64,000 nt of DNA from a bacterium (GCA_037200965.1 JBBCGK010000001.1:160001-224000), one strand, 5' to 3'. Positions 1-10,485 are shown, counted from the first letter of the stretch. Numbers and translations are program-made. Notes: generated from the sequence alone by a model not told the origin.

Positions 1-966
1 GTGTTTTATAACCAAATCCTCGACTACTGGGATCGCCTCGATCTTGAAGTCCAGTGTGAGGGACGCGTTATAACGCCGCAAGACCGGCTCGAAAAGGAAA
101 CGCTCGACGATGCCCATGCAAAGGAAAAGCAGTACTTCGCCAAATTCTTTGAGAAGCTGATTACGCACCACAACACCGTTCTCCAAGACCTCTACCAGAA
201 AGGAAAACATAAGGAGCTTGCGATGTTCATCAAGGCTCGCTTCGAGTGGATCAGTCGCTTGCTTTATATCAACAAGGTTGCTCTGGCCGACGAGTATGGC
301 GCGAAGATCGCCGGTGCTGGCGTTTACCTTCCATTTCTGCCAAAGCAGATACTTCTCGACTCGGAGTTTTGGGAAGAACTTGAAAAGACTCTATTCCCAT
401 CAGTCATTGAAAATTGCCCAACGCTTTTTAAGGTGTTGTCCGGATTGCTCACGCTCATGTTGCCAGTCATCAATGCCGACGAGAAAAATGTCGACAACAT
501 CATGTATCGCAATCGCCTCGGTCTCATTCTTGGCGGATTCGTATACCTCGTCTGCGAATTCAGGCAGGATTACAGCCTGATGATCGAGTACGTGCAAACG
601 ATTGAAGTTGCGTACCAGCCAGGCCAGTTCGTCAAAGCAATGGAGGTACTCTCGAAGCCGAAGGAAGTCGGAGGTCTCGACCTCACGCTCAAGCTCATAA
701 ACTGGGAGCTTACTCGCTACCATCACTGGTTCGGCGAAATCCTCGGCCAGATATCGGAGCTTCCTAAGACCTACGATAACGTCCGTGTCTATTCCGGCTT
801 GCAAGAGGTCGCAGACCATCCGAGCAAGTTCATCCGTGAGTTGAGCTACCGGCCGTACCAGCCGGAGGAAGAATGCGCGGAGGCATTTGTCGAGTGGGCA
901 AAGAAGCGAGATGCTATCCGACAATTGGTCGAAGTGCTTAAGAAAGTTCAAGAGAAAAAGATATGA
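1..966 (+). CDS. hypothetical protein (first gene of a low-GC four-gene operon; the 5' end may lie upstream of the window)
   Basis: The 321-codon ORF starts at the window edge with GTG. Its stop overlaps the next start (ATGA at 963-966). GC is visibly lower than in the rest of the window. I recognise no domain. Confidence 0.45.
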   Translation: MFYNQILDYWDRLDLEVQCEGRVITPQDRLEKETLDDAHAKEKQYFAKFFEKLITHHNTVLQDLYQKGKHKELAMFIKARFEWISRLLYINKVALADEYGAKIAGAGVYLPFLPKQILLDSEFWEELEKTLFPSVIENCPTLFKVLSGLLTLMLPVINADEKNVDNIMYRNRLGLILGGFVYLVCEFRQDYSLMIEYVQTIEVAYQPGQFVKAMEVLSKPKEVGGLDLTLKLINWELTRYHHWFGEILGQISELPKTYDNVRVYSGLQEVADHPSKFIRELSYRPYQPEEECAEAFVEWAKKRDAIRQLVEVLKKVQEKKI

Positions 967-2066
967 GACGACGCGCTTACAAACAAAGAGTGAAAGGCTA
1001 TGTGTTCGATGATCCGTTCCTCGGCTACATTCAAGGCCGCGACCGGCTAGAGAAGGCGTCATGGAACGCAATGGAACTAAGCAACGAGACCGACTCTGTA
1101 CGGTACTCGCTCTTTCCGTTGCGCGATATACCGGTGGCGGATCGTCCCGGCTATGTGACTCACGAACGCAATTACTTCAGCATCGAGTGCGATGATCCAG
1201 TCTTGAAAAAAGACCTCGAGATGTATTTCACCGACGAGCATTCGTTCTATCGGGATGGCCTGTACGGTCAGGGCGATGTGCTAGGAGGCTTTTTGGAGAG
1301 CATCGCGCACGAGCTGTTTGTGGTCGGCGATTCATTCCGCATGATCGAATGGGAGGAGGTCGATATCAAAGGCCGGAAGTATCAATTTCCAGTCGACTTT
1401 GAATATCTCAGGAACGAGACGATGAAAGTGCGCCGCAAGGGAGGGTTGATCGTAGGTTATCGGCAAAAGTACAGCCTCTTTACCTATCTCAAGGAGAAGC
1501 GATTCAAGGGATACGAGGATAAAGAGAAGCCGCGATCGTTTGAGTTTGAAAAAGAGGAGGTTGTGTACTGCAAGTATCCGTTTGCTAAAAAGTCGCCGAC
1601 GGCGCAGAGCATCAAATACCTTAAGCCAATCAAGAAGTTCTGGCAGTTCGGCATTGATCAATCGAAGAGTGGTGTCGAGGTAGAAAATCATTATCTGCCG
1701 CTTGAGCGAGCGCGGTACACCACCTATTCGCGAGAGAAACGGAAGTACGATATCGCTCGTGGAAAGATACGCACCATTTTCAATTACTTGATGGAAACGA
1801 ACGGGCCTAAGCTCACGCAGTATTACGATATATACACCGTGATCCGCTACAAAAAATTCCTCAATGACTTTAGGGATTATTTGGTACGAGAATTCAACGA
1901 GCAGGTGCTGGCGATCGTGGCAAAAAGGAATGGCTTTACTTCCGTCCCTAAACTCGTCTATAGTGGCTTTCTCTCTAATGCCGAACTGGATGCCGCACTA
2001 CAGGGTTACACAGACGGCACGATCACGTTTGATCAGATTGTTCAGCAAATAGTAAAAAAGTCTTAA
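963..2066 (+). CDS. hypothetical protein (second gene of the low-GC operon)
   Basis: This is a 367-aa ORF on the same strand. Its start overlaps the stop of the upstream gene, suggesting translational coupling. No recognisable motifs. Confidence 0.45.
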   Translation: MRRRAYKQRVKGYVFDDPFLGYIQGRDRLEKASWNAMELSNETDSVRYSLFPLRDIPVADRPGYVTHERNYFSIECDDPVLKKDLEMYFTDEHSFYRDGLYGQGDVLGGFLESIAHELFVVGDSFRMIEWEEVDIKGRKYQFPVDFEYLRNETMKVRRKGGLIVGYRQKYSLFTYLKEKRFKGYEDKEKPRSFEFEKEEVVYCKYPFAKKSPTAQSIKYLKPIKKFWQFGIDQSKSGVEVENHYLPLERARYTTYSREKRKYDIARGKIRTIFNYLMETNGPKLTQYYDIYTVIRYKKFLNDFRDYLVREFNEQVLAIVAKRNGFTSVPKLVYSGFLSNAELDAALQGYTDGTITFDQIVQQIVKKS

Positions 2067-2072
2067 AAAGAT

Positions 2073-2666
2073 ATGGGAGAAAAAGATAAACAAATTCTAA
2101 AAGATTCCGCGTTGGTCATTGCCGACCAGATAGCGTCCGCATTGCCGGGATTAAATATTGCATGGGGTTTAAGCAAGGCATTGTATGGTGCTGGTCTAAA
2201 ACTTCGTGAACAAAGAGCATTGGAATGGATTGAAATGGTTAGAGATAATCCCTCGGCATTTACTGAAACAATTATGCAAGATGCGAAATTCCAAGACGGA
2301 TTTGTGTACGCGTTGGAGCGTTATATCAGAGAGAAAAACGATAACAAAAGAAAAGCGATGCGCTCCGTATTTCTTGGGTTTGCGCTATCTCCGAATCAGG
2401 ACACTTTTGAGCTAGAGAGGATGTACCATGTATTAGGTATTCTTAGTGCAGAGGATATGATCGTTTTGAAGGATGTCGATTTTACACGAACCGATTTTCA
2501 TCAAGTGTATGAGCAGACTACCGACAAAAATGAGAACGTCTACAATTTGGTGAATGCCGGAATCTTGATGTCTGACTATTCATCTCGCATTGGCCCCATA
2601 GCCGCGCCATTTATAAAAGTAACTGCGTTTGGGAAAAGTTTTGTCGGATTCTTAAAATCAACATGA
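2073..2666 (+). CDS. hypothetical protein (third gene of the low-GC operon)
   Basis: 197-aa ORF beginning 6 bp after the previous stop. It is AT-rich. Its stop overlaps the start of the next gene (ATGA). Confidence 0.45.
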   Translation: MGEKDKQILKDSALVIADQIASALPGLNIAWGLSKALYGAGLKLREQRALEWIEMVRDNPSAFTETIMQDAKFQDGFVYALERYIREKNDNKRKAMRSVFLGFALSPNQDTFELERMYHVLGILSAEDMIVLKDVDFTRTDFHQVYEQTTDKNENVYNLVNAGILMSDYSSRIGPIAAPFIKVTAFGKSFVGFLKST

Positions 2667-3175
2667 CAATCTTTTATATAATTATAGGCATCATTATAGT
2701 CATCGCAGTAGCACTCGCAATTTCCCGTGGAGGTTTTGCTGACGTGGCGGAGAAAGCTAAGTATCGCTATAACCGCAAGAATTTCTTCCTTACTCGAGCA
2801 GAGCACGAATGCTATGACGCTCTCGTTGCGGCAGTCGGCGCGGAGTATCGCATTTTCGCACAGGTGCATTTGCCAACACTGGTCGATCACACGGTTCGGG
2901 GGCAGGATTGGCGCGCGGCTCTGGCTCACATCAATCGGAAGTCTGTTGACTTCGTGCTATGCGATAAGGCGTATCTCTCTCCAAAGCTTGCTATTGAGCT
3001 TGATGATAAGTCCCATGAGCGACCCGATCGGCAAGAGCGCGATCGCGAAGTCGAGCGGATTCTGCGCGAAGCCGCCGTGCCGCTTTTGAGGCTAGAGAAT
3101 CATGGCCATTTTGCTCCTGACGAACTAAAAAGATTGATCGAGAACGCTCTGACACCGTCTACTCCAACAACTTAA
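2663..3175 (+). CDS. membrane-anchored DUF2726-like protein (PD-(D/E)xK / NERD-like nuclease fold candidate)
   Basis: The N-terminus is a hydrophobic helix (MTIFYIIIGIIIVIAVALAI). Then comes a block (FLTRAEHECYDAL...IFAQVHL...VDFVLCDK..LAIELDDKSHE) that I recall as typical of the DUF2726 family. It is the last gene of the four-gene operon. Confidence 0.55.
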   Translation: MTIFYIIIGIIIVIAVALAISRGGFADVAEKAKYRYNRKNFFLTRAEHECYDALVAAVGAEYRIFAQVHLPTLVDHTVRGQDWRAALAHINRKSVDFVLCDKAYLSPKLAIELDDKSHERPDRQERDREVERILREAAVPLLRLENHGHFAPDELKRLIENALTPSTPTT

Positions 3176-3470
3176 AACGGCGCAGTTCTTTCTGCGCCGT
3201 TTCTATGTCCTCGAGGACTTTGAGATAGATTCGCTTTGTTTTCTTTGATTTCGGATTGCGCTCGGCAAAGAGGACGTCGTCATCCTCGACGAAGCCGGCG
3301 AGCGAGATGTACGCGCCCGCGAGATGTCTCATGCGATCTTTGAGCGCCGCCTTCAGTTTGGCTTTCGGCTCCGGAAGCAAAGAGAGCGGATTGAGCATGC
3401 CTTTCCGGTATTTGAGTCGTATATCTTTCGCAGCGCGGATAGCTGCGTCGATGTCCTCGGTATCTTCCAT
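3159..3470 (-). CDS. hypothetical small protein
   Basis: 103-aa ORF that converges on the DUF2726 gene. Charged and helical in character. No confident assignment. Confidence 0.3.
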   Translation of the reverse strand: MEDTEDIDAAIRAAKDIRLKYRKGMLNPLSLLPEPKAKLKAALKDRMRHLAGAYISLAGFVEDDDVLFAERNPKSKKTKRIYLKVLEDIETAQKELRRFKLLE

Positions 3471-3836
3471 CGCAACACGACCCTATGCCTATTCGCGTGA
3501 GAAGCCAAGCTCGTTTTGGCGTAGTTACCCACATCTCGTGCCAAGGCTTCAAATTTCGTCAAACCGGTGGTCGAGGGTGCAAACTGGTATCAGTTGTGGA
3601 TCGCTCCGACAAAGTTCGCTACAGGGGCACACAGGCGGGAAATCGAGGGGTTATAGGTTTTCGTACTTGGCCAGGAGGCCTTTCATTTGGTCGAGCACCA
3701 CGGTCGGATATTTGTACTCCTCCGCCCAGTCAAAAGTTCGAAAGTCGTTCAGAAGGGCGAGCAGAATAGGACAGAGAGACTCGAAAGAGTCTTTTATTTA
3801 CCTTGTTATTTTCGAGTTCGAAAGTCTTTCCTAGGT

Positions 3837-4319
3837 CTATCCTCTCTTGAACACGCTGGGCCAGCTTTTCAACTGGCTTTGTGAGTGTGTAGGCCACTTT
3901 TTCGTCCTTAAGTAGTAGGTTCGAAAAAATTTGACCCAAAAAAGTACCCTCCGCTCCTCAGGGGTTCTGCGTAGGTAGATTTCTCGTGCTCGTGTTGCAA
4001 GATCAACAATGTTAAGCCAAATCTCGAAGTATTTAGCCTCATCATCTTTAAGTCTCGAAATCTGAGACTGGGGGCTTGTTTGCTCCTCGGTTATTTCCTT
4101 CTGCTTAGTTTCCCATTGATAGACGGTAATACGTCCCTCCAAACGATCATCGTAAAGTACGTCCAAACGCCTCTGTAAGGCCTTCCAGCGGGCGTTTAGG
4201 GCACTTACGGTCTTCTCCTTGTATTCGATTTCTTCAGCAGGAAGTTTATTTCGAAAGTAAGCAAAGCACCTTAATGTATCATTTCGAAACCTTCTCGACC
4301 TTGCCAGTCGCCCGATCAA
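3837..4319 (-). pseudogene. remnant of a large serine recombinase (C-terminal coiled-coil region only; the catalytic N-terminus is missing)
   Basis: RLDVLYDDRLEGRIT and TPEERRVLFWVKFFRTYYL resemble the C-terminal coiled-coil and tail of large serine recombinases. No resolvase catalytic domain lies upstream, because the neighbouring gene's stop abuts it. Frameshifted continuation fragments lie at about 3480-3940. Confidence 0.4.
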
Positions 4320-5196
4320 GTGAATACTGTCCGCAATCTGCGCATGTTTGTTCGCCTGCGCCGTCTCCCTTCAGATATTTGTAGAACAAGACCTGCGAGC
4401 CGTCTGTTGAGAGAGACGCGCTATCCGAGAAGCCATATGGGAAGCTCTGTACGGTTGCTGCCTTTTTATCAATAACGCAGATGCGAGAAGCACTCATATA
4501 TCCAATCACTTGCAGGTCGTCGGAGAATGCGCCGGGAAATATTTGCGGTTCGATAGGATCGGCATCTGCCGGATTGCACGCCGGAGGCAGTGCCTTTGCA
4601 TACTGCGCGTTGTCGGTGATGAGGCTTGCAGGACCAAATCGCTTGTCGCTTATATAAATCGCATTCTTATCCCTCGAAGCACTCTGAGGCAAAATCTCGA
4701 ATGTTGTAGGGTTGGCACCGGGCAGCTCGCGCCACGTATCCCAGACGCGGTACTGATCTTTGGCATAGCTGCTTCCCGGAATCACACTGAAAGTCCTGGT
4801 ATCCGCGCCGGGCACGAGGTAGTAGCCTCCGTAGACGACATGCGTTGCGTCTTTACCGTAGTTGGCATCAACAACGACAAAGGTCGCTGGATCAAAATTC
4901 GCCACGACATTTGTGCACATGTAGACATTGTTCTTGTCTTTAGCATATGCACTGTTCGACGATGCTTCAAACGTTGCGACGTCCGCTTCGCCTATGGGAT
5001 TTCCCTGGCAATAAATCGTATCGCCATTCATCCAAAACCATTTGTTGTCGCTGACAGAGGGTTCATGTTTGGGCAGGGCGCTCGCCGGAATCCATGTGGA
5101 TTGCTGAGAAGCTGGTGAATACATTTTCCATATCGCAAAACCGCATGCGAGTATCGCTACAATCAGTATCGTGCCAAGAATAGTTTTTCGTTGCAT
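4279..5196 (-). CDS. secreted or membrane-anchored DKNYY-repeat protein
   Basis: N-terminal TM or signal sequence. Repeated DKNNVY, DKNAIY, KDQYRVW and THVVYGG motifs match the DKNYY repeat family. Confidence 0.6.
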   Translation of the reverse strand: MQRKTILGTILIVAILACGFAIWKMYSPASQQSTWIPASALPKHEPSVSDNKWFWMNGDTIYCQGNPIGEADVATFEASSNSAYAKDKNNVYMCTNVVANFDPATFVVVDANYGKDATHVVYGGYYLVPGADTRTFSVIPGSSYAKDQYRVWDTWRELPGANPTTFEILPQSASRDKNAIYISDKRFGPASLITDNAQYAKALPPACNPADADPIEPQIFPGAFSDDLQVIGYMSASRICVIDKKAATVQSFPYGFSDSASLSTDGSQVLFYKYLKGDGAGEQTCADCGQYSLDRATGKVEKVSK

Positions 5197-5200
5197 CTTG

Positions 5201-6028
5201 TTAGAAGGTTAGGTCTACTCCCCGTAGTTTTTTGTTCATCGTCTGCAGCGCATTCGGCTGAGCGTTGGGATTCTGCACGACCTGCGAACCGTCGAACACG
5301 GAAATATGTATCGAGTTGTCGGTATGCGTTTCGTCGACTAGGAGGCTGAAGTCGCCCTTGCCGTTGTGGTACGTTTCGCTGCCAGTGAGCTTTGATCCCG
5401 GCACGAGGACGAACGTACCCTGATCAAGCGTATAGGTATAGATGTCTTCGTAGCCGATATACAGCACAGTCTGTCTGCCGTTCGATGCAGGTTGTGGACG
5501 CTCAAATGGCAGGCGGTGAGCAGCATAACTCGCGGCATTTTGGAGGTAGGAGCTTTCGCCTGTCTGCGAGTCGATCAGCATATCGTAGTAGGTATGCGTA
5601 GGAACCGTGATCAATACATAGCGTTTGCCAATCGCTATCGGCCACGATTGCGAATAGTTGTCCCCGTGCCCGTTAGCGGCTGCTTTGGATGCCAAGATGT
5701 CGGCCACATCGTTCCTGATCTTTTCCTCCTGCGGAGTGAGAGACTTGCCGTCGTAGCTTCTGCTGTCGACAAAGTACGGCGTAATGCCCTGCAGATCCGT
5801 TTGTAGCTTAGTGAGCAATGCAGGATCGACCGCAGTTTTATCAACCACAATTGGTGCGGAAGTGTCAGTAGTTGAGGATGTAGAAGTCGAGGTGGAAGTG
5901 TTCGTGGTGGGCGCGTGCTTTTGAAACACGACGAGCATGGTGACGCCGATTGCTGCCACAATGATAATTATCGCCCCGACCGTTTTACTTATTGGAAATC
6001 GTGTGTTGTTCATATTTTGACGACGCAA
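5201..6028 (-). CDS. membrane-anchored hypothetical protein (paralogue of 11483-12868)
   Basis: N-terminal TM helix, then a Thr/Ser-rich linker. The C-terminal domain shares TPQEEKI, GSETYH, ETHTDNSI...VFD and NA.QTM.K..R.V.L blocks with the protein at 11483-12868. Confidence 0.55.
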   Translation of the reverse strand: MRRQNMNNTRFPISKTVGAIIIIVAAIGVTMLVVFQKHAPTTNTSTSTSTSSTTDTSAPIVVDKTAVDPALLTKLQTDLQGITPYFVDSRSYDGKSLTPQEEKIRNDVADILASKAAANGHGDNYSQSWPIAIGKRYVLITVPTHTYYDMLIDSQTGESSYLQNAASYAAHRLPFERPQPASNGRQTVLYIGYEDIYTYTLDQGTFVLVPGSKLTGSETYHNGKGDFSLLVDETHTDNSIHISVFDGSQVVQNPNAQPNALQTMNKKLRGVDLTF

Positions 6029-6405
6029 TCAAAATTAATAGCCTTATGGTACTCCTTTTCAGGCTTTTTAGCTTGTGTGAGTGTTATGACGTGCAAAGGC
6101 CTCGTTTCTTGCTGGAGTATAATGAAAGCCTACAGCGACGCGAATTCCCATCAGCTTCGGCTGATGGGAATTTTCGTATAAAAATCACTTTACAAATTCA
6201 AAGGGCGACTCCCGACGTAGCACCTTTACGGCAGCCTCCATCTCGTAGGACTTGTAGCCACTTAAAATAACGGTTCTAAGTTCTCGCACCGCTCGGAGCA
6301 AAGCTGGGCGGACCGACACGAAAGTGTCGGTTTCGTCTTTATTTGCCTAATTCTTTATTTATGATATAGTCCACTCGGCAACTTGAACACGGAAGGAATA
6401 CGGCC

Positions 6406-6771
6406 ATGCCGGTCGGATCTGTCAGACACAAACACGGTCGTGGGCTTGGCGAGCTTGCGGCGAAACTCACCGAGGCGCTGCCTGGCATCGTCGCGCCTGC
6501 GCTCAGCATCGAGGGGCGCGAAATCCACGATGGAAAGGTCACGCCTGACGAAATCATCATCCGGTGCGAAGAAGGAACTGGGGCCGACGCGAACGCGAAA
6601 GACCTCGAAATCATGATCTTCGCGCACGACTTCCCGGAACGCTCCGCGAACCTCGAAGACCGCAAGAAGATCGTCCTCGAAGGTGTCCTTGCGTTCCTCG
6701 CCGACTGGGACCGCAACGTCACGGGCTTCGTGTGGGTCATCCTTGCGCCGACCGCGTTCGGCAGCTTTTAA
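6406..6771 (+). CDS. hypothetical protein
   Basis: 121-aa ORF with a GGAAGGAA RBS upstream. It is followed by a hairpin plus T-tract terminator at 6797-6827. Confidence 0.45.
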   Translation: MPVGSVRHKHGRGLGELAAKLTEALPGIVAPALSIEGREIHDGKVTPDEIIIRCEEGTGADANAKDLEIMIFAHDFPERSANLEDRKKIVLEGVLAFLADWDRNVTGFVWVILAPTAFGSF

Positions 6772-6838
6772 TTCAATGGGCTTGTGCGAACAGAAGGGCC
6801 GCCGGAGCGATTCGGCGGCCTTTTGTTATACTTTGAAT

Positions 6839-7315
6839 ATGACCGACACCGACTTCATTAAGCTCGCGATTGAGGAGGCCAGGAAATCACAGGCTGCGGC
6901 CGGCGCTCCAATCGGGGCTGTCATGGTGAAGGACGGGGAAGTGATCGCGACAGGTTGGAGCTTGGTGTGGCCCAAGAAAGACCCTTCCGCACACGGAGAA
7001 ACCGCTTGTATTCGTGCTGCCTGTGACAAGCTCCAGTCGCTCGATCTCTCCGGCTGTACACTCTATTCAACCCTTGAATCCTGTTCCATGTGCCTCGGCT
7101 GTGCTAGTTGGGCCGGAGTTTCGCGTGTCGTTTTCGGTGCGTACAAAGAAGACATACCGGAGAATCCATACGAACTCACTGACTATCATGCCGAGGAACA
7201 TGCCAAGCGGCTTACTGCTCCGGCAGGACAGAAGGTCGGGGTCATCGGCGGCGTTTTACGCGAGGAGTGCGCGGCACTCATGGCGAAAGTGAAGAATTGG
7301 ACTCCAATGGAATAA
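6839..7315 (+). CDS. CMP/dCMP-type zinc deaminase (TadA / guanine deaminase-like)
   Basis: HGE...(PCxMC-like) CSMCLGC zinc-binding motif and an overall cytidine/deoxycytidylate deaminase pattern. The start was chosen at the ATG after the terminator. Confidence 0.7.
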   Translation: MTDTDFIKLAIEEARKSQAAAGAPIGAVMVKDGEVIATGWSLVWPKKDPSAHGETACIRAACDKLQSLDLSGCTLYSTLESCSMCLGCASWAGVSRVVFGAYKEDIPENPYELTDYHAEEHAKRLTAPAGQKVGVIGGVLREECAALMAKVKNWTPME

Positions 7316-7329
7316 GCTACAGTTCCTGT

Positions 7330-7647
7330 ATGCAAAACTGCATCATCATCCACGGCTGCCCCTCGAACGTCGAGAAGGCGATGAATCCCGAGACTCGGAC
7401 GCATGATAAGCATTGGATTCCATGGGTTAAGAACACGCTTACAAAATTCGGAATTCCGACCGAGGCTCCGCTCATGCCCGAACCGTGGGAGCCGTCATAC
7501 GAGAAATTCAAGGCAGAGTTGCGCCCGCTCCACTACCCTCTAATCGCGAGCCGCCTCTGCGGCAAGATGCCCAGCGAGCGTAGTGATGAAGGTCTTGAGA
7601 CTGGTGAGCTCGCTCATGTCCGAGTAGTCGCCGGTGTCCTTGGCTGA
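7330..7647 (+). pseudogene. N-terminal fragment of a YdeN/RBBP9-like alpha/beta serine hydrolase (truncated)
   Basis: IIIHGCPS...HW.PW...FGIPTEAPLMPEPWEPSYEKF resembles the N-terminus of the Ser_hydrolase family. The ORF then runs into and overlaps the convergent endonuclease gene, with no sensible C-terminus. Confidence 0.3.
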
Positions 7648-8274
7648 CTGCGGCGAGAGCATGATGCACGCCGACGTGTAAAGCTGTTCCTGCACGAGCT
7701 TTTTGCAGAGGATGTTGTAGCGATCGGCATAGGATGCGCCTTTGAATTCCGGAAGCAATGGGAAGTGCGGCGAATTATCCGTCACTGGCGAGCGCGAGCC
7801 CGGCGCGTCTTCGAGGAGCATGAGCCAGCCGACGAATGGCTTCGGTTGTTCCCCGAACGCTCCTTCCCGGTACGCGGTCCACAGGTCGTGCGCGGTCCCG
7901 ATTGCTTCTTCTATGCGATTATTGAAATTATTGCCGAACGAGCCGACCTGCGACTTGAATTCGAGCGCGGCGACGAGACGGCCTTCGCTGAGTATGAGGA
8001 AATCCCATTGCTTAGTTGGTCTGAAGAAGCCCGGTAGGGTGACGAGACGCCCGCTATGAATGACCGTCGCATCTGTAAGGCCATTTGCTTCGGCAAGATC
8101 TGCCATCAGCGTGGCGAAGCCATCCATGTTCTTACCCGCAGTGACTGCGCCGCGGGTTCCTTGGTCTACAGTTCCGGATTCCTCCTGTTGCCGGACCGCA
8201 ACACTGCGATTGCCCCAGAACAGTTCGACTGCCTGTTTAGCACGCTTCTCGTATTGCGCGAGGTCTATGGCCAT
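7540..8274 (-). CDS. type II restriction endonuclease candidate (PaeR7I/XhoI-like)
   Basis: 244-aa ORF lying 5 bp downstream of a methyltransferase gene on the same strand, arranged as an R-M operon. Size and general composition recall the XhoI/PaeR7I family. The family call rests on recollection alone. Confidence 0.5.
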
Positions 8275-8279
8275 ACGTT

Positions 8280-9986
8280 TTATGCCTTGATGGTAGCACG
8301 CTCGGATGGAGAGAGAGAAAACAAGGCGGATACGGCTTCGTCGCGGGCTTCAGAGTCATCACTGCCCGCTGCCGCGCGAAGCGCCTGCTGCAGATCCTTG
8401 GAGACATCGCTCCACCGCGGCAACCGGATACGCCGCAGATACTGTGCCTGAAACCGGAGACAGTTCCCGTGCATGCGCGTCGAGTAGGTCTCGATGAATA
8501 CGCGCGCGATGCCAGAGAGCAAGACGGCACGGAGCGCTTGAAGATCCCATTCGTCGGAGGTGATGTAGTAAAGATTGTGATGAGGATACAGCTTGCCCTC
8601 GTCGTAGACGATATGGGCATCGCCCTTGATATCTGGGATCAGGAGTTTCGGCTTCTGCACGAGCTCCGGATAGATACGGTCGATCGTGCGGTACCAAGCG
8701 CTCGGGTTCTTCTTGGAGACGTGCCGGTTCCTGATCGCCACTTCGTGCTGTCCGAGGTATGCGCGCAGCCGGGGATACTTCTCAAGCGAGACCGGCTTCC
8801 CGTCATTCCCGAATGGATTCACGACGCCCAGTCCGCGCCATGCTACCGTACCCGTCTGAATATCCTTGGTCATTACGAGCGGAAGTTTGCACTCGGCCTC
8901 GACATCGAGCGTATCGAAGGGCGCGATGAACACATCGTCTGCCCCCGTCGCAACGCCGATACCCACCTTGCATCCCGTTTCCTCCAGCGTTGGGAAATCA
9001 CTCTCAAGGCGGCGAATGAGCGCGAGTGTGTCCGACTCCTCAAGCGTCCATGGGTCGCCGCCGGTGATGGTCGTTACTTTTACGGACTCATGGTCGGCCA
9101 ATGCGCCTCGCACGAGCGCGCGGGCCAGATCCTCTAGCGCAGATGCCTCAATCTCCGGGCGCTTCGCCACATAGGTCGGACCGGCCGACTCGCGGGCGAT
9201 TACGGTGATTGCCGGATATGCGATCACTTCCGAATGGAAGGCTGGGGTACCGACCATGTCGACGTATGTCCGCATGTGGAATCGCTTCGCGACAAGTTCG
9301 CGGAGGGGACCTCCGTAGCGATTCTTCATCCAGCGGTCAGCGCAGATAAAACCGAGCGTGCCGCCCTCATCGAGGAGCTTCAGCGAGTATTCGATAAAAG
9401 GGATAAAAATATCTGCTCGATCGTAAATCGTCTCGTACCGGCGACGGTACTCGGCCATCAGCACATTGGGTACCATCTCTTGCCTGATGTACGGCGGATT
9501 TCCGACAACATGAGTAAAGGAGTGCCCGAATGGCGTGAGCAGGAAGTCGCCTTGGACGAGCCAAGCCCCAAGGATTTCTTCGCTTTGATCGATAGTTAGT
9601 CCGTTCTGGAGGAGAATCGCTCGCACTTCCTTCCTCGTCTTATCAAATGACCCCATGTGGAGCTCCACCCCGCGGATACTGTCTCTCAAGAGATCTGCAC
9701 TGGGCTTTATGTTCCTAGTCTTGAGCGAGGACATGAGCCGCTTCACCGCTGGTATGAGGAAATCTCCATGTCCGAACGACGGTTCGAGAAGACGTGCCGC
9801 GTACAGTTCATTGGAAGGCACATAACCGACGAGGTCGAGTATAAAATCCACCACTTCCGACCGCGTGAAAATGGCCCCGCGGTCGTCGGTTCCTGCTGCT
9901 GCAAACTCCTCTATGGCAGACGCGACTGGAGAAAGGCCGGGGAGGAATTCCTGCGCGAGCTGTCCTTTTAGCGTGCCAACTCTCAT
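8280..9986 (-). CDS. N6-adenine DNA methyltransferase (Eco57I/TaqI-like gamma-class)
   Basis: NPPY catalytic motif ([10 protein letters not shown]). An AdoMet-binding region lies upstream ([11 protein letters not shown]). The start is set at MRVGTLKG (ATG at 9984-9986). The upstream in-frame extension is Cys/Ser-rich and does not look like protein. Confidence 0.7.
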
Positions 9987-10143
9987 GTGTTTAATAATAC
10001 CATTCCCGGGAGTGAGAGAGCGATTTCGAGGTATTGAACCATTACGAAGGACTTGACACAAGTATCTACTTATGATAGAGTCTGTCCTGGTAGTAGATTC
10101 CATTCCGGCATCTCCCCAGCCACGAACCTTACAGGAGGCTTCC

Positions 10144-10485
10144 ATGGCACGTTCAATCATCCTCGAGTCCGACCCCGAAGCACGCGTTGGTTTCAACGCG
10201 CAGGAAGGAGCGGGACACGAGAAGACCGAATCCCGCGTCGTCATCGACATCAGCGGTTACAAGCTGGTGCATGACACGGAAACGGAAGGAGGCCTGCATG
10301 TCGTGCAGCTCTACCTCACCGTTCCTCAAATGGCACAGCTTGTGCGGATGTTTTTCTTGGAGATTGCTAAGGAAAACATCTACGCACAGCTCCTTCGTCG
10401 GCTCCTCCGGCAACGGTGGAAGGTCATGACGAATGGTGCCGCCAAGCACATGGGTTGGATGCCGCGATACGATCAAGGCGTCTGA
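10144..10485 (+). CDS. hypothetical protein
   Basis: An AGGAGG RBS lies 6 nt before the ATG at 10144. The protein is 113 aa with no recognised domain. Confidence 0.4.

Follow-up and report, generated by a model that had tools for sequence, protein, structure and literature searches.

The DNA described here is a 64,000-nucleotide stretch of a bacterial contig (GCA_037200965.1, JBBCGK010000001.1:160001-224000), referred to below as the window, which opens with four closely packed genes, numbered 1 to 4. Judged by comparison with related loci, genes 1 and 2 appear to be a self-contained two-gene cassette which recombines as a unit and is horizontally mobile. Gene 1 encodes a large membrane protein, and gene 2 a soluble protein whose predicted structure is that of a phage portal. 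The pair, of which the literature searches found no earlier report, appears to travel between islands of restriction-modification genes in ultra-small bacteria, and is probably a new kind of anti-phage cassette. Genes 3 and 4 look like a separate add-on, not part of the gene 1-2 core, with gene 4 being locus-specific and effector-like. The initial annotation of this DNA had suggested that the four genes may be one multi-gene system with the DUF2726 nuclease-fold protein as its effector. That view did not survive the comparison: genes 1-2 and gene 3 occur separately, gene 3 is joined to DUF2726 only here, and the four genes are a mosaic and not one conserved system.

Inspection of the DNA upstream had also been proposed. 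It was taken from locus L001, a public contig which shares 12,066 bases with the window at 100% identity and adds 9 kb, and it supplied the rest of gene 1 (827 amino acids in full) and an intact recombinase gene. The four genes are as follows.

1-966, plus strand: gene 1, last 321 codons of an 827-amino-acid gene, cut by the window edge (open reading frame (ORF) call)
963-2066, plus strand: gene 2, 367 amino acids, soluble, predicted phage portal fold (ORF call and fold search)
2073-2666, plus strand: gene 3, 197 amino acids, soluble, member of a family found throughout the candidate phyla radiation (CPR) (ORF call)
2663-3175, plus strand: gene 4, 170 amino acids, N-terminal transmembrane (TM) anchor and DUF2726 (ORF call, Pfam)

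The description of these genes as co-directional and tightly packed was accurate. Genes 1 and 2 are joined by an ATGA overlap, as are genes 3 and 4, and a 6-nt spacer separates genes 2 and 3.

The gene 1-2 pair and its neighbours

Gene 1 lies directly upstream of gene 2 in every locus with upstream DNA, ie in more than 25 loci and about 15 distinct contexts (the evidence for pairing comes from six gene-annotated contexts and 21 metagenome loci). The stop codon of gene 1 overlaps or abuts the start codon of gene 2 in all paired loci. Across these loci the identity of gene 2 ranges from 38% to 95%, and the two proteins have diverged in step, their identities to the window copies (gene 1/gene 2) being 93/94, 82/83, 64/66, 49/49 and 40/40%. 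Nucleotide similarity to six other loci begins at the gene 1 start codon and stops at the gene 2 stop codon. These borders, the strict pairing and the in-step divergence are the reasons for thinking that the cassette moves as a unit. Genes 1 and 2 are found without genes 3 and 4 in about 13-15 contexts. The named hosts are nearly all CPR bacteria (Parcubacteria, Uhrbacteria, Moranbacteria, Doudnabacteria, Paceibacterota, Minisyncoccota and Saccharibacteria), together with one Scalindua, and this rare, patchy spread over the CPR classes fits a mobile accessory cargo.

A restriction-modification (R-M) gene is situated 3-40 nt before gene 1, or overlaps it, in L001, L005, L008, L042, L043, L051, L054 and L058, which between them have five distinct arrangements. 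The R-M types, which are unrelated to one another, are a type II pair in L001, an MmeI-type methylase-nuclease in L005, type III-like Mod/Res in L008, L042 and L043, a type I HsdR in L054 and a D12 methylase in L058. On the other side, a gene for a Cas4-like PD-(D/E)xK nuclease directly follows gene 2 in L008, L009, L042, L043 and L053, and in L055 it comes second, after a gene for an RNase H-zinc-ribbon protein; domain scans of these Cas4-like genes covered L008 and L055. Other downstream neighbours are a TIR-TPR protein in Scalindua, gene 3 in three loci only (L001, L010 and L062), DUF2726 (after gene 3) in the window, and unfamiliar proteins in L004, L044, L045 and L052. Nothing lies downstream of gene 2 in L005, L007, L054 and L063, and on the strength of these four loci the pair seems able to stand alone. 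The downstream nucleases may be optional partners, or simply neighbours. Two candidate systems in PADLOC adjoin the pair, namely the PDC-S28 helicase at L004 6202-8799 (2.8e-119) and PDC-S11 at L059 9124-10062 (1.6e-122), and these neighbours independently support the view that defence islands are where the cassette resides.

Within 8-10 kb of the pair in L001-L009, the genes called included no terminase, capsid or tail gene. The sole viral contig with the pair is L063, where the relative of gene 2 was confirmed by hhalign (probability 100%, E 7e-51). Here the pair stands between DNA methylases and the serine integrase of the phage, which is the usual site of accessory or exclusion genes in a prophage. 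The terminase gene of this phage is about 4 kb from the pair (5 kb start to start), on the opposite strand and separated from it by the methylase genes. Searches of PDB by phmmer with the terminase and the adjoining partial ORF returned nothing.

In some loci a gene for a DNA methyltransferase of the D12 or N6_N4 class, fused to a LexA DNA-binding domain and an S24 peptidase, lies divergently upstream of the gene 1-2 cassette (minus strand; L045 277-1971, L046 3841-5361 and L052 3952-5415). The architecture is unusual, and the product would be a self-cleaving methylase, possibly with a link to SOS.

The portal fold of gene 2 and the product of gene 1

The modelled gene 2 protein was compared with known structures by fold search. 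Its scores against portals were 16.8 for P23-45, 16.5 for Mu, 16.3 for the Rhodobacter gene transfer agent (GTA), 13.6 for HK97 and 12.5 for SPP1, with 231-272 residues aligned at 5-12% identity; the next unrelated fold scored 6.8. The portal fold comprises a wing, stem helices and a crown, and the predicted fold of gene 2 agrees with that of the phage and GTA portals of the HK97, Mu, SPP1 and P23-45 type (PDB 6qjt, 9khx, 6tba, 8cez and 2jes). It differs from them in being undetected by the portal hidden Markov models (HMMs) of Pfam and PHROGs, with no match of any kind at E<=0.1 and E<=1, respectively. It differs also in its setting: unlike portal genes, it is not beside terminase, protease, scaffold or capsid genes (L001-L009), and is always coupled to a large membrane protein. 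Profile searches of the PDB sequences with the alignments of genes 1, 2 and 3 gave nothing at E<=1, and the PDB portal sequences were among those which the gene 2 profile did not reach. Gene 2 is, then, a portal by its predicted fold, and outside every portal family by sequence and genomic context. The fold was missed by every sequence library tried, and fold searches can expose components that catalogues of defence systems miss.

The gene 2 family is small: its members fall into 39 clusters among 5.8e9 proteins, and a profile search of 1.84e9 gave 110 representatives. Full-length relatives are almost all single-domain proteins of about 330-390 amino acids. Their alignment has 26 invariant and 61 nearly invariant columns, with W130, E248, E258, Y288, D289, K298, N301 and R304 among the invariant residues, and the ORFs, of 340-390 amino acids, are uninterrupted in all representatives. 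A tblastn search of 50,697 phage genomes with gene 2 found no match, nor did a pattern scan of IMG/VR with the gene 2 alignment.

The gene 1 family is of similar size, ie 43 clusters among the same 5.8e9 proteins. The full-length protein has four strong TM segments, between residues 84 and 230, and this part matches DUF2254 (PF10011; E 1e-10, 41.4 bits, cut-off 28.8). The match spans only profile positions 13-173 of 368, and the other approximately 565 residues are unrelated to the profile. The statement in the initial annotation that genes 1, 2 and 3 have no recognisable domains must therefore be amended for gene 1, whose DUF2254 part lies outside the window. Apart from this match, genes 1-3 yielded nothing useful in scans of Pfam, NCBIfam, PHROGs and PADLOC. 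The TM bundle is followed by a small alpha/beta region and then by an alpha-helical solenoid of about 500-600 residues. Segments rich in Arg and Lys, read from the sequence, precede the first strong TM helix and follow the fourth, on the solenoid side. From these flanks of the bundle the positive-inside rule would put the solenoid on the cytoplasmic side, together with the soluble gene 2 product. We infer that the gene 1 protein, polytopic in the inner membrane, is an anchor with a binding scaffold, and possibly an effector. A terminase was considered for gene 1 and rejected, as it has no ATPase or nuclease fold.

Proposed role and alternatives

To our knowledge, portal proteins occur only in the capsids of tailed phages, herpesviruses, GTAs and capsid-forming satellites, and gene 2 would be the first portal put to another use. 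In full-text searches of the literature no report was found of a portal-like protein outside virion modules, of a decoy portal in defence, or of DUF2254 in defence, and a search on CPR defence gave nothing relevant. We put at about even the chance that genes 1-2 serve phage exclusion as a mobile accessory cassette, and hold the details of the mechanism to be less likely. In the mechanism which we propose, the gene 2 protein would assemble as a ring docked on the gene 1 solenoid at the membrane, with gene 1 as the anchor and possibly the effector. The ring would mimic the phage portal, and interfere with or sense the packaging or assembly machinery; it could capture a conserved partner of the portal, for example the terminase-DNA packaging motor, or scaffold or capsid subunits. 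Capture might halt packaging or assembly, set off the membrane protein, or lay the phage DNA open to a neighbouring nuclease; at the window locus, genes 3 and 4 would add a membrane-anchored nuclease module. The narrower idea, that a viral portal was captured and is reused outside the capsid as a membrane-docked decoy which traps phage packaging or assembly machinery, is possible and is offered tentatively. If the pair does defend its host, the principle of immunity would be a new one, namely mimicry, in which a host-encoded copy of a virion part serves as bait, and it would be spread among CPR bacteria and their prophages. Few defence systems besides R-M are known in the CPR (Patescibacteria), and such a finding would help to fill a near-blank picture of their immunity.

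Several points weigh against this proposal. Genes 1 and 2 have no homology to any validated defence protein. In the PADLOC scan which had been suggested at the outset (PADLOC-DB v2.0.0), genes 1 (full length), 2 and 4 had no match, and gene 3 had only a sub-threshold match to LmuC (E 0.0076). The downstream neighbours are in part independent candidate systems (PDC-S11 in L059), and what look like variable effectors may just be neighbouring systems; the compactness of CPR genomes may be all that lies behind the tight spacing to R-M genes. Contacts between portals and their partners tend to be specific to the phage, and a broad decoy is less likely for that reason. In a portal, the stretch between the two long helices is the clip, which binds terminase and adaptor. 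The corresponding loop of gene 2 (residues 273-285) looks very short and is of low confidence in the model, and its secondary structure suggests that the clip may be reduced to about 13 residues, which would tell against capture of a terminase.

Two known defence systems bear some resemblance to the pair. Kiwa (KwaA and KwaB) is likewise found in defence islands and pairs, by translational coupling, a polytopic membrane protein with a soluble one. However, no PADLOC model, those of KwaA and KwaB included, matched genes 1-2; the gene 1 protein is four times larger and has a cytoplasmic solenoid, and its soluble partner has a predicted portal fold and not DUF4868. The antiviral STAND sensors known as Avs reportedly recognise the terminase and portal proteins of phages. 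The likeness here is conceptual, ie the head-packaging machinery of tailed phages as the cue for infection. Avs proteins are STAND NTPases which bind the phage protein, whereas here the host element itself encodes the viral fold, and there is no NTPase. None of the Avs models in PADLOC gave a match.

The chief alternative is that the pair serves the mobile element, as a membrane-docked portal ring acting as a DNA conduit by which the island is transferred or taken up, or by diverting the capsid assembly or packaging of a helper phage to the island in the manner of a satellite. Portals are DNA-conducting rings, gene 1 puts the pair at the membrane, the cassette moves as one discrete block, and large serine recombinases and S24 repressors are frequent near it. 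We nevertheless find this rather doubtful: the pair is not accompanied by any ATPase, relaxase, terminase or capsid gene, for many copies no recombinase lies within 8 kb, and the genes in the flanks are mostly those of R-M and other defence systems, not of transfer. A four-component defence system, with the membrane-anchored DUF2726 nuclease as its effector, is unlikely. The common direction and close junctions of the four genes favour it, as do the restriction endonuclease (REase) fold of DUF2726 and the retention of genes 1-3 together in the close relatives L010 and L062. In those relatives, though, a 164-amino-acid polytopic membrane protein takes the place of gene 4, which follows gene 3 only in the window; 30 genome loci carry gene 3 without genes 1-2, and the conserved unit is largely refuted by the contexts in which genes 1-2 lack genes 3-4.

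A housekeeping or stress function of genes 1-2, for example as a membrane scaffold unrelated to phages which hitchhikes in variable regions, is very unlikely. DUF2254 proteins are widespread membrane proteins whose role is undescribed (Pfam description), and a solenoid is a generic binding scaffold, but the family is extremely rare (39-43 clusters) and patchy over distant lineages. Nor would such a function agree with the foreign composition in the window, the cassette-like breakpoints and the constant R-M neighbourhood. It is scarcely credible that gene 2 is a decaying prophage portal linked to gene 1 by accident. Such a relic might be suspected from the portal fold, from the recombinase remnant in the window with an intact recombinase nearby, and from the one homologous pair on a contig classed as viral (L063). 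Decay is at odds with full-length, uninterrupted ORFs and so many invariant columns in the family, and an incidental link with a pairing that stays strict while identity ranges from 38% to 95%. The surroundings of the pair contain no further head or tail genes, and neither the phage genomes nor IMG/VR gave a match.

Genes 3 and 4 and the flanking DNA

The gene 3 family is large, with at least 192 clusters. Away from gene 2, a member typically overlaps the 3' end of a defence gene (KAP NTPase, Mrr, HsdR or helicase-REase), and the genes after it differ widely, being small polytopic membrane proteins, HsdS and others. In L014 (219-3641) and L016 (3678-7121) a homologue of gene 3 belongs to a tight three-gene unit, together with a KAP-family NTPase and a 173-amino-acid polytopic membrane protein. 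This arrangement suggests that, in other defence operons of the CPR, gene 3 connects a sensor NTPase with a membrane effector. Homologues of gene 3 also occur inside type I R-M operons, directly 5' of hsdS or hsdM-S, in L023, L025 and L033 (about 6001-6590, 655-1320), a placement which recalls the PrrC-type genes embedded in type I R-M loci. Two assignments of gene 3 were tried and rejected. It is not the LmuC of a Lamassu system, as the SMC-like ATPase LmuB and the effector LmuA are absent from the operon and its flanks. Abi_alpha (PF14337) was matched by 4 of 52 family members (best E 0.018), all below the gathering cut-off, and not by the window protein. A tblastn search of the PLSDB plasmids with gene 3 found no match.

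The closest relatives of the window cassette are L010 and L062, at 84-94% protein identity, and in these the similarity at nucleotide level is lost about 30 nt short of the gene 3 end. A DUF2726 gene is absent from all 62 of the other loci. Gene 4 is a clear member of DUF2726 by HMM (PF10881; E 6.9e-29, 100.6 bits, cut-off 24.7, profile positions 5-124 of 126), with weaker matches to MTES_1575 (2.8e-4) and DUF559 (6.3e-3). One TM segment is present at residues 2-20, and the description of gene 4 as a TM-anchored protein of nuclease fold was thus correct. A candidate PD-(D/E)xK-type motif, assigned by eye from the sequence, is D96...E112-L-D114-D-K116. Here the domain forms a stand-alone protein with a TM anchor, placed after gene 3. 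DUF2726 has been described as a DNase domain of REase fold which is found in predicted defence proteins (PMC3710099). No DUF2726 protein with a tested role was found, and phmmer searches of PDB with gene 4 gave noise only.

The AT-rich start of the window, and with it the foreign composition, was borne out: positions 1-3175 have a GC (guanine plus cytosine) content of 47.9%, and gene 3 of 41.1%, compared with 58.1% over the window as a whole and 59.8% between 20 and 64 kb. The host GC had been put too high, at about 65% instead of approximately 58-60%, and the low-GC block is not limited to the first 3.2 kb or so, but reaches to about 6300 on the right and at least 9 kb to the left of the window start. 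Upstream of genes 1-4 the L001 stretch has 42-52% GC throughout. Leftward from gene 1 it contains first the type II R-M pair, in which an EcoRI-like methylase is joined by a GmrSD_N+HNH enzyme (PADLOC REase_II, 1e-146), then AbiEi/AbiEii, a number of small genes and the intact large serine recombinase. With AbiEi/AbiEii and R-M directly upstream and a further R-M system on the right, the defence-island setting originally proposed holds good. The best explanation is that a mobile defence mosaic of low GC, at least 15 kb long, has its right-hand part in the window, from position 1 to about 6300, and that the genome which carries it is small (about 1 Mb) and probably of the CPR (Patescibacteria). 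No RNA genes were found in the window from 1 to 6500 by Rfam and tRNA scans. The features to the right of gene 4 within the block are listed here.

3159-3470, minus strand: convergent ORF, 103 amino acids, a gene on the public contig, which overlaps the 3' end of gene 4 by 17 nt
3475-3534, no strand: imperfect direct repeat of 50-60 nt, with its other copy at L001 1585-1634 (repeat search and blastn)
3837-4319, minus strand: remnant of a large serine recombinase, C-terminal coiled-coil part, with similarity demonstrable only over 3963-4238
4279-5196, minus strand: DKNYY-family protein (Pfam E 5.3e-21; GC 50.8%)
5201-6028, minus strand: 275-amino-acid protein with weak surface- or exclusion-protein matches only (GC 51.7%)
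6188-6319, minus strand: micro-ORF of about 38-44 amino acids (LRAVRELRTVI.NGWHSYEMEAAVKVLRRESPFE) (blastn, translation and tblastn)

The convergent ORF at 3159-3470 had no family match in scans of Pfam, NCBIfam, PHROGs and PADLOC. Recombinase fragments had been reported over 3480-4319. Over 3963-4238 (minus strand) there is 32% identity across 92 amino acids to residues 367-458 of an intact large serine recombinase (tblastn, E 2e-12), and, as was stated, no catalytic piece; in 3480-3836 the matches were at noise level, and fragments there were rejected. Large serine recombinases have Resolvase and Recombinase domains, a zinc ribbon and a coiled coil, and the remnant aligns with the coiled-coil region only. 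The ORF at 3837-4319 also has a weak match to the integrase phrog_95 (E 0.0018, profile positions 444-546 of 651). Neither a Resolvase nor a Recombinase domain was found in the window from 1 to 7000 by Pfam or tblastn, and because its catalytic and recombinase domains are entirely missing the remnant cannot be active. The intact enzyme, with both domains, is encoded on the same contig about 11 kb upstream (L001 1-1540), and the description of the island as immobilised is accordingly unsupported. The 3' end of the DKNYY gene overlaps the 5' end of the remnant, and for this reason the DKNYY gene may have displaced the catalytic part of the recombinase.

The two copies of the direct repeat share 42 of 60 positions with one gap, a marginal match (E 0.004 in a small search space). 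The left copy is just upstream of the intact recombinase gene, 10.9 kb leftward, and the repeats bracket AbiE, the R-M pair and genes 1-4. The repeat is either an att-like relic or a product of chance; a tRNA-derived att site was rejected, as there is no tRNA at that position.

The micro-ORF marks the right edge of the low-GC block. In six loci including the window it lies on the downstream side of the gene 1-2 cassette, in convergent orientation, with different genes intervening. Its other copies are at L010 8678-8791, L062 2737-2850, L052 10999-11112 and L045 7554-7667, where the segments are 75-79% identical (blastn), and, more weakly, at L044 10032-10112 (tblastn). Between the window and L010 the differences fall at every third base in one stretch, as expected for coding DNA. 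The micro-ORF may be a fragment from a border or a target gene, or may encode a small regulator or toxin.

To the right of the block a second R-M system occupies 7540-10250 (minus strand), and consists of a complete XhoI-type restriction enzyme (PF04555, E 9.7e-89) and an Eco57I/TaqI_C-type N6 methyltransferase. Between the edge of the island and this system there is a gene of the cytidine/dCMP deaminase family at 6776-7315 (plus strand; PF00383, MafB19-deam; annotation of the public contig).

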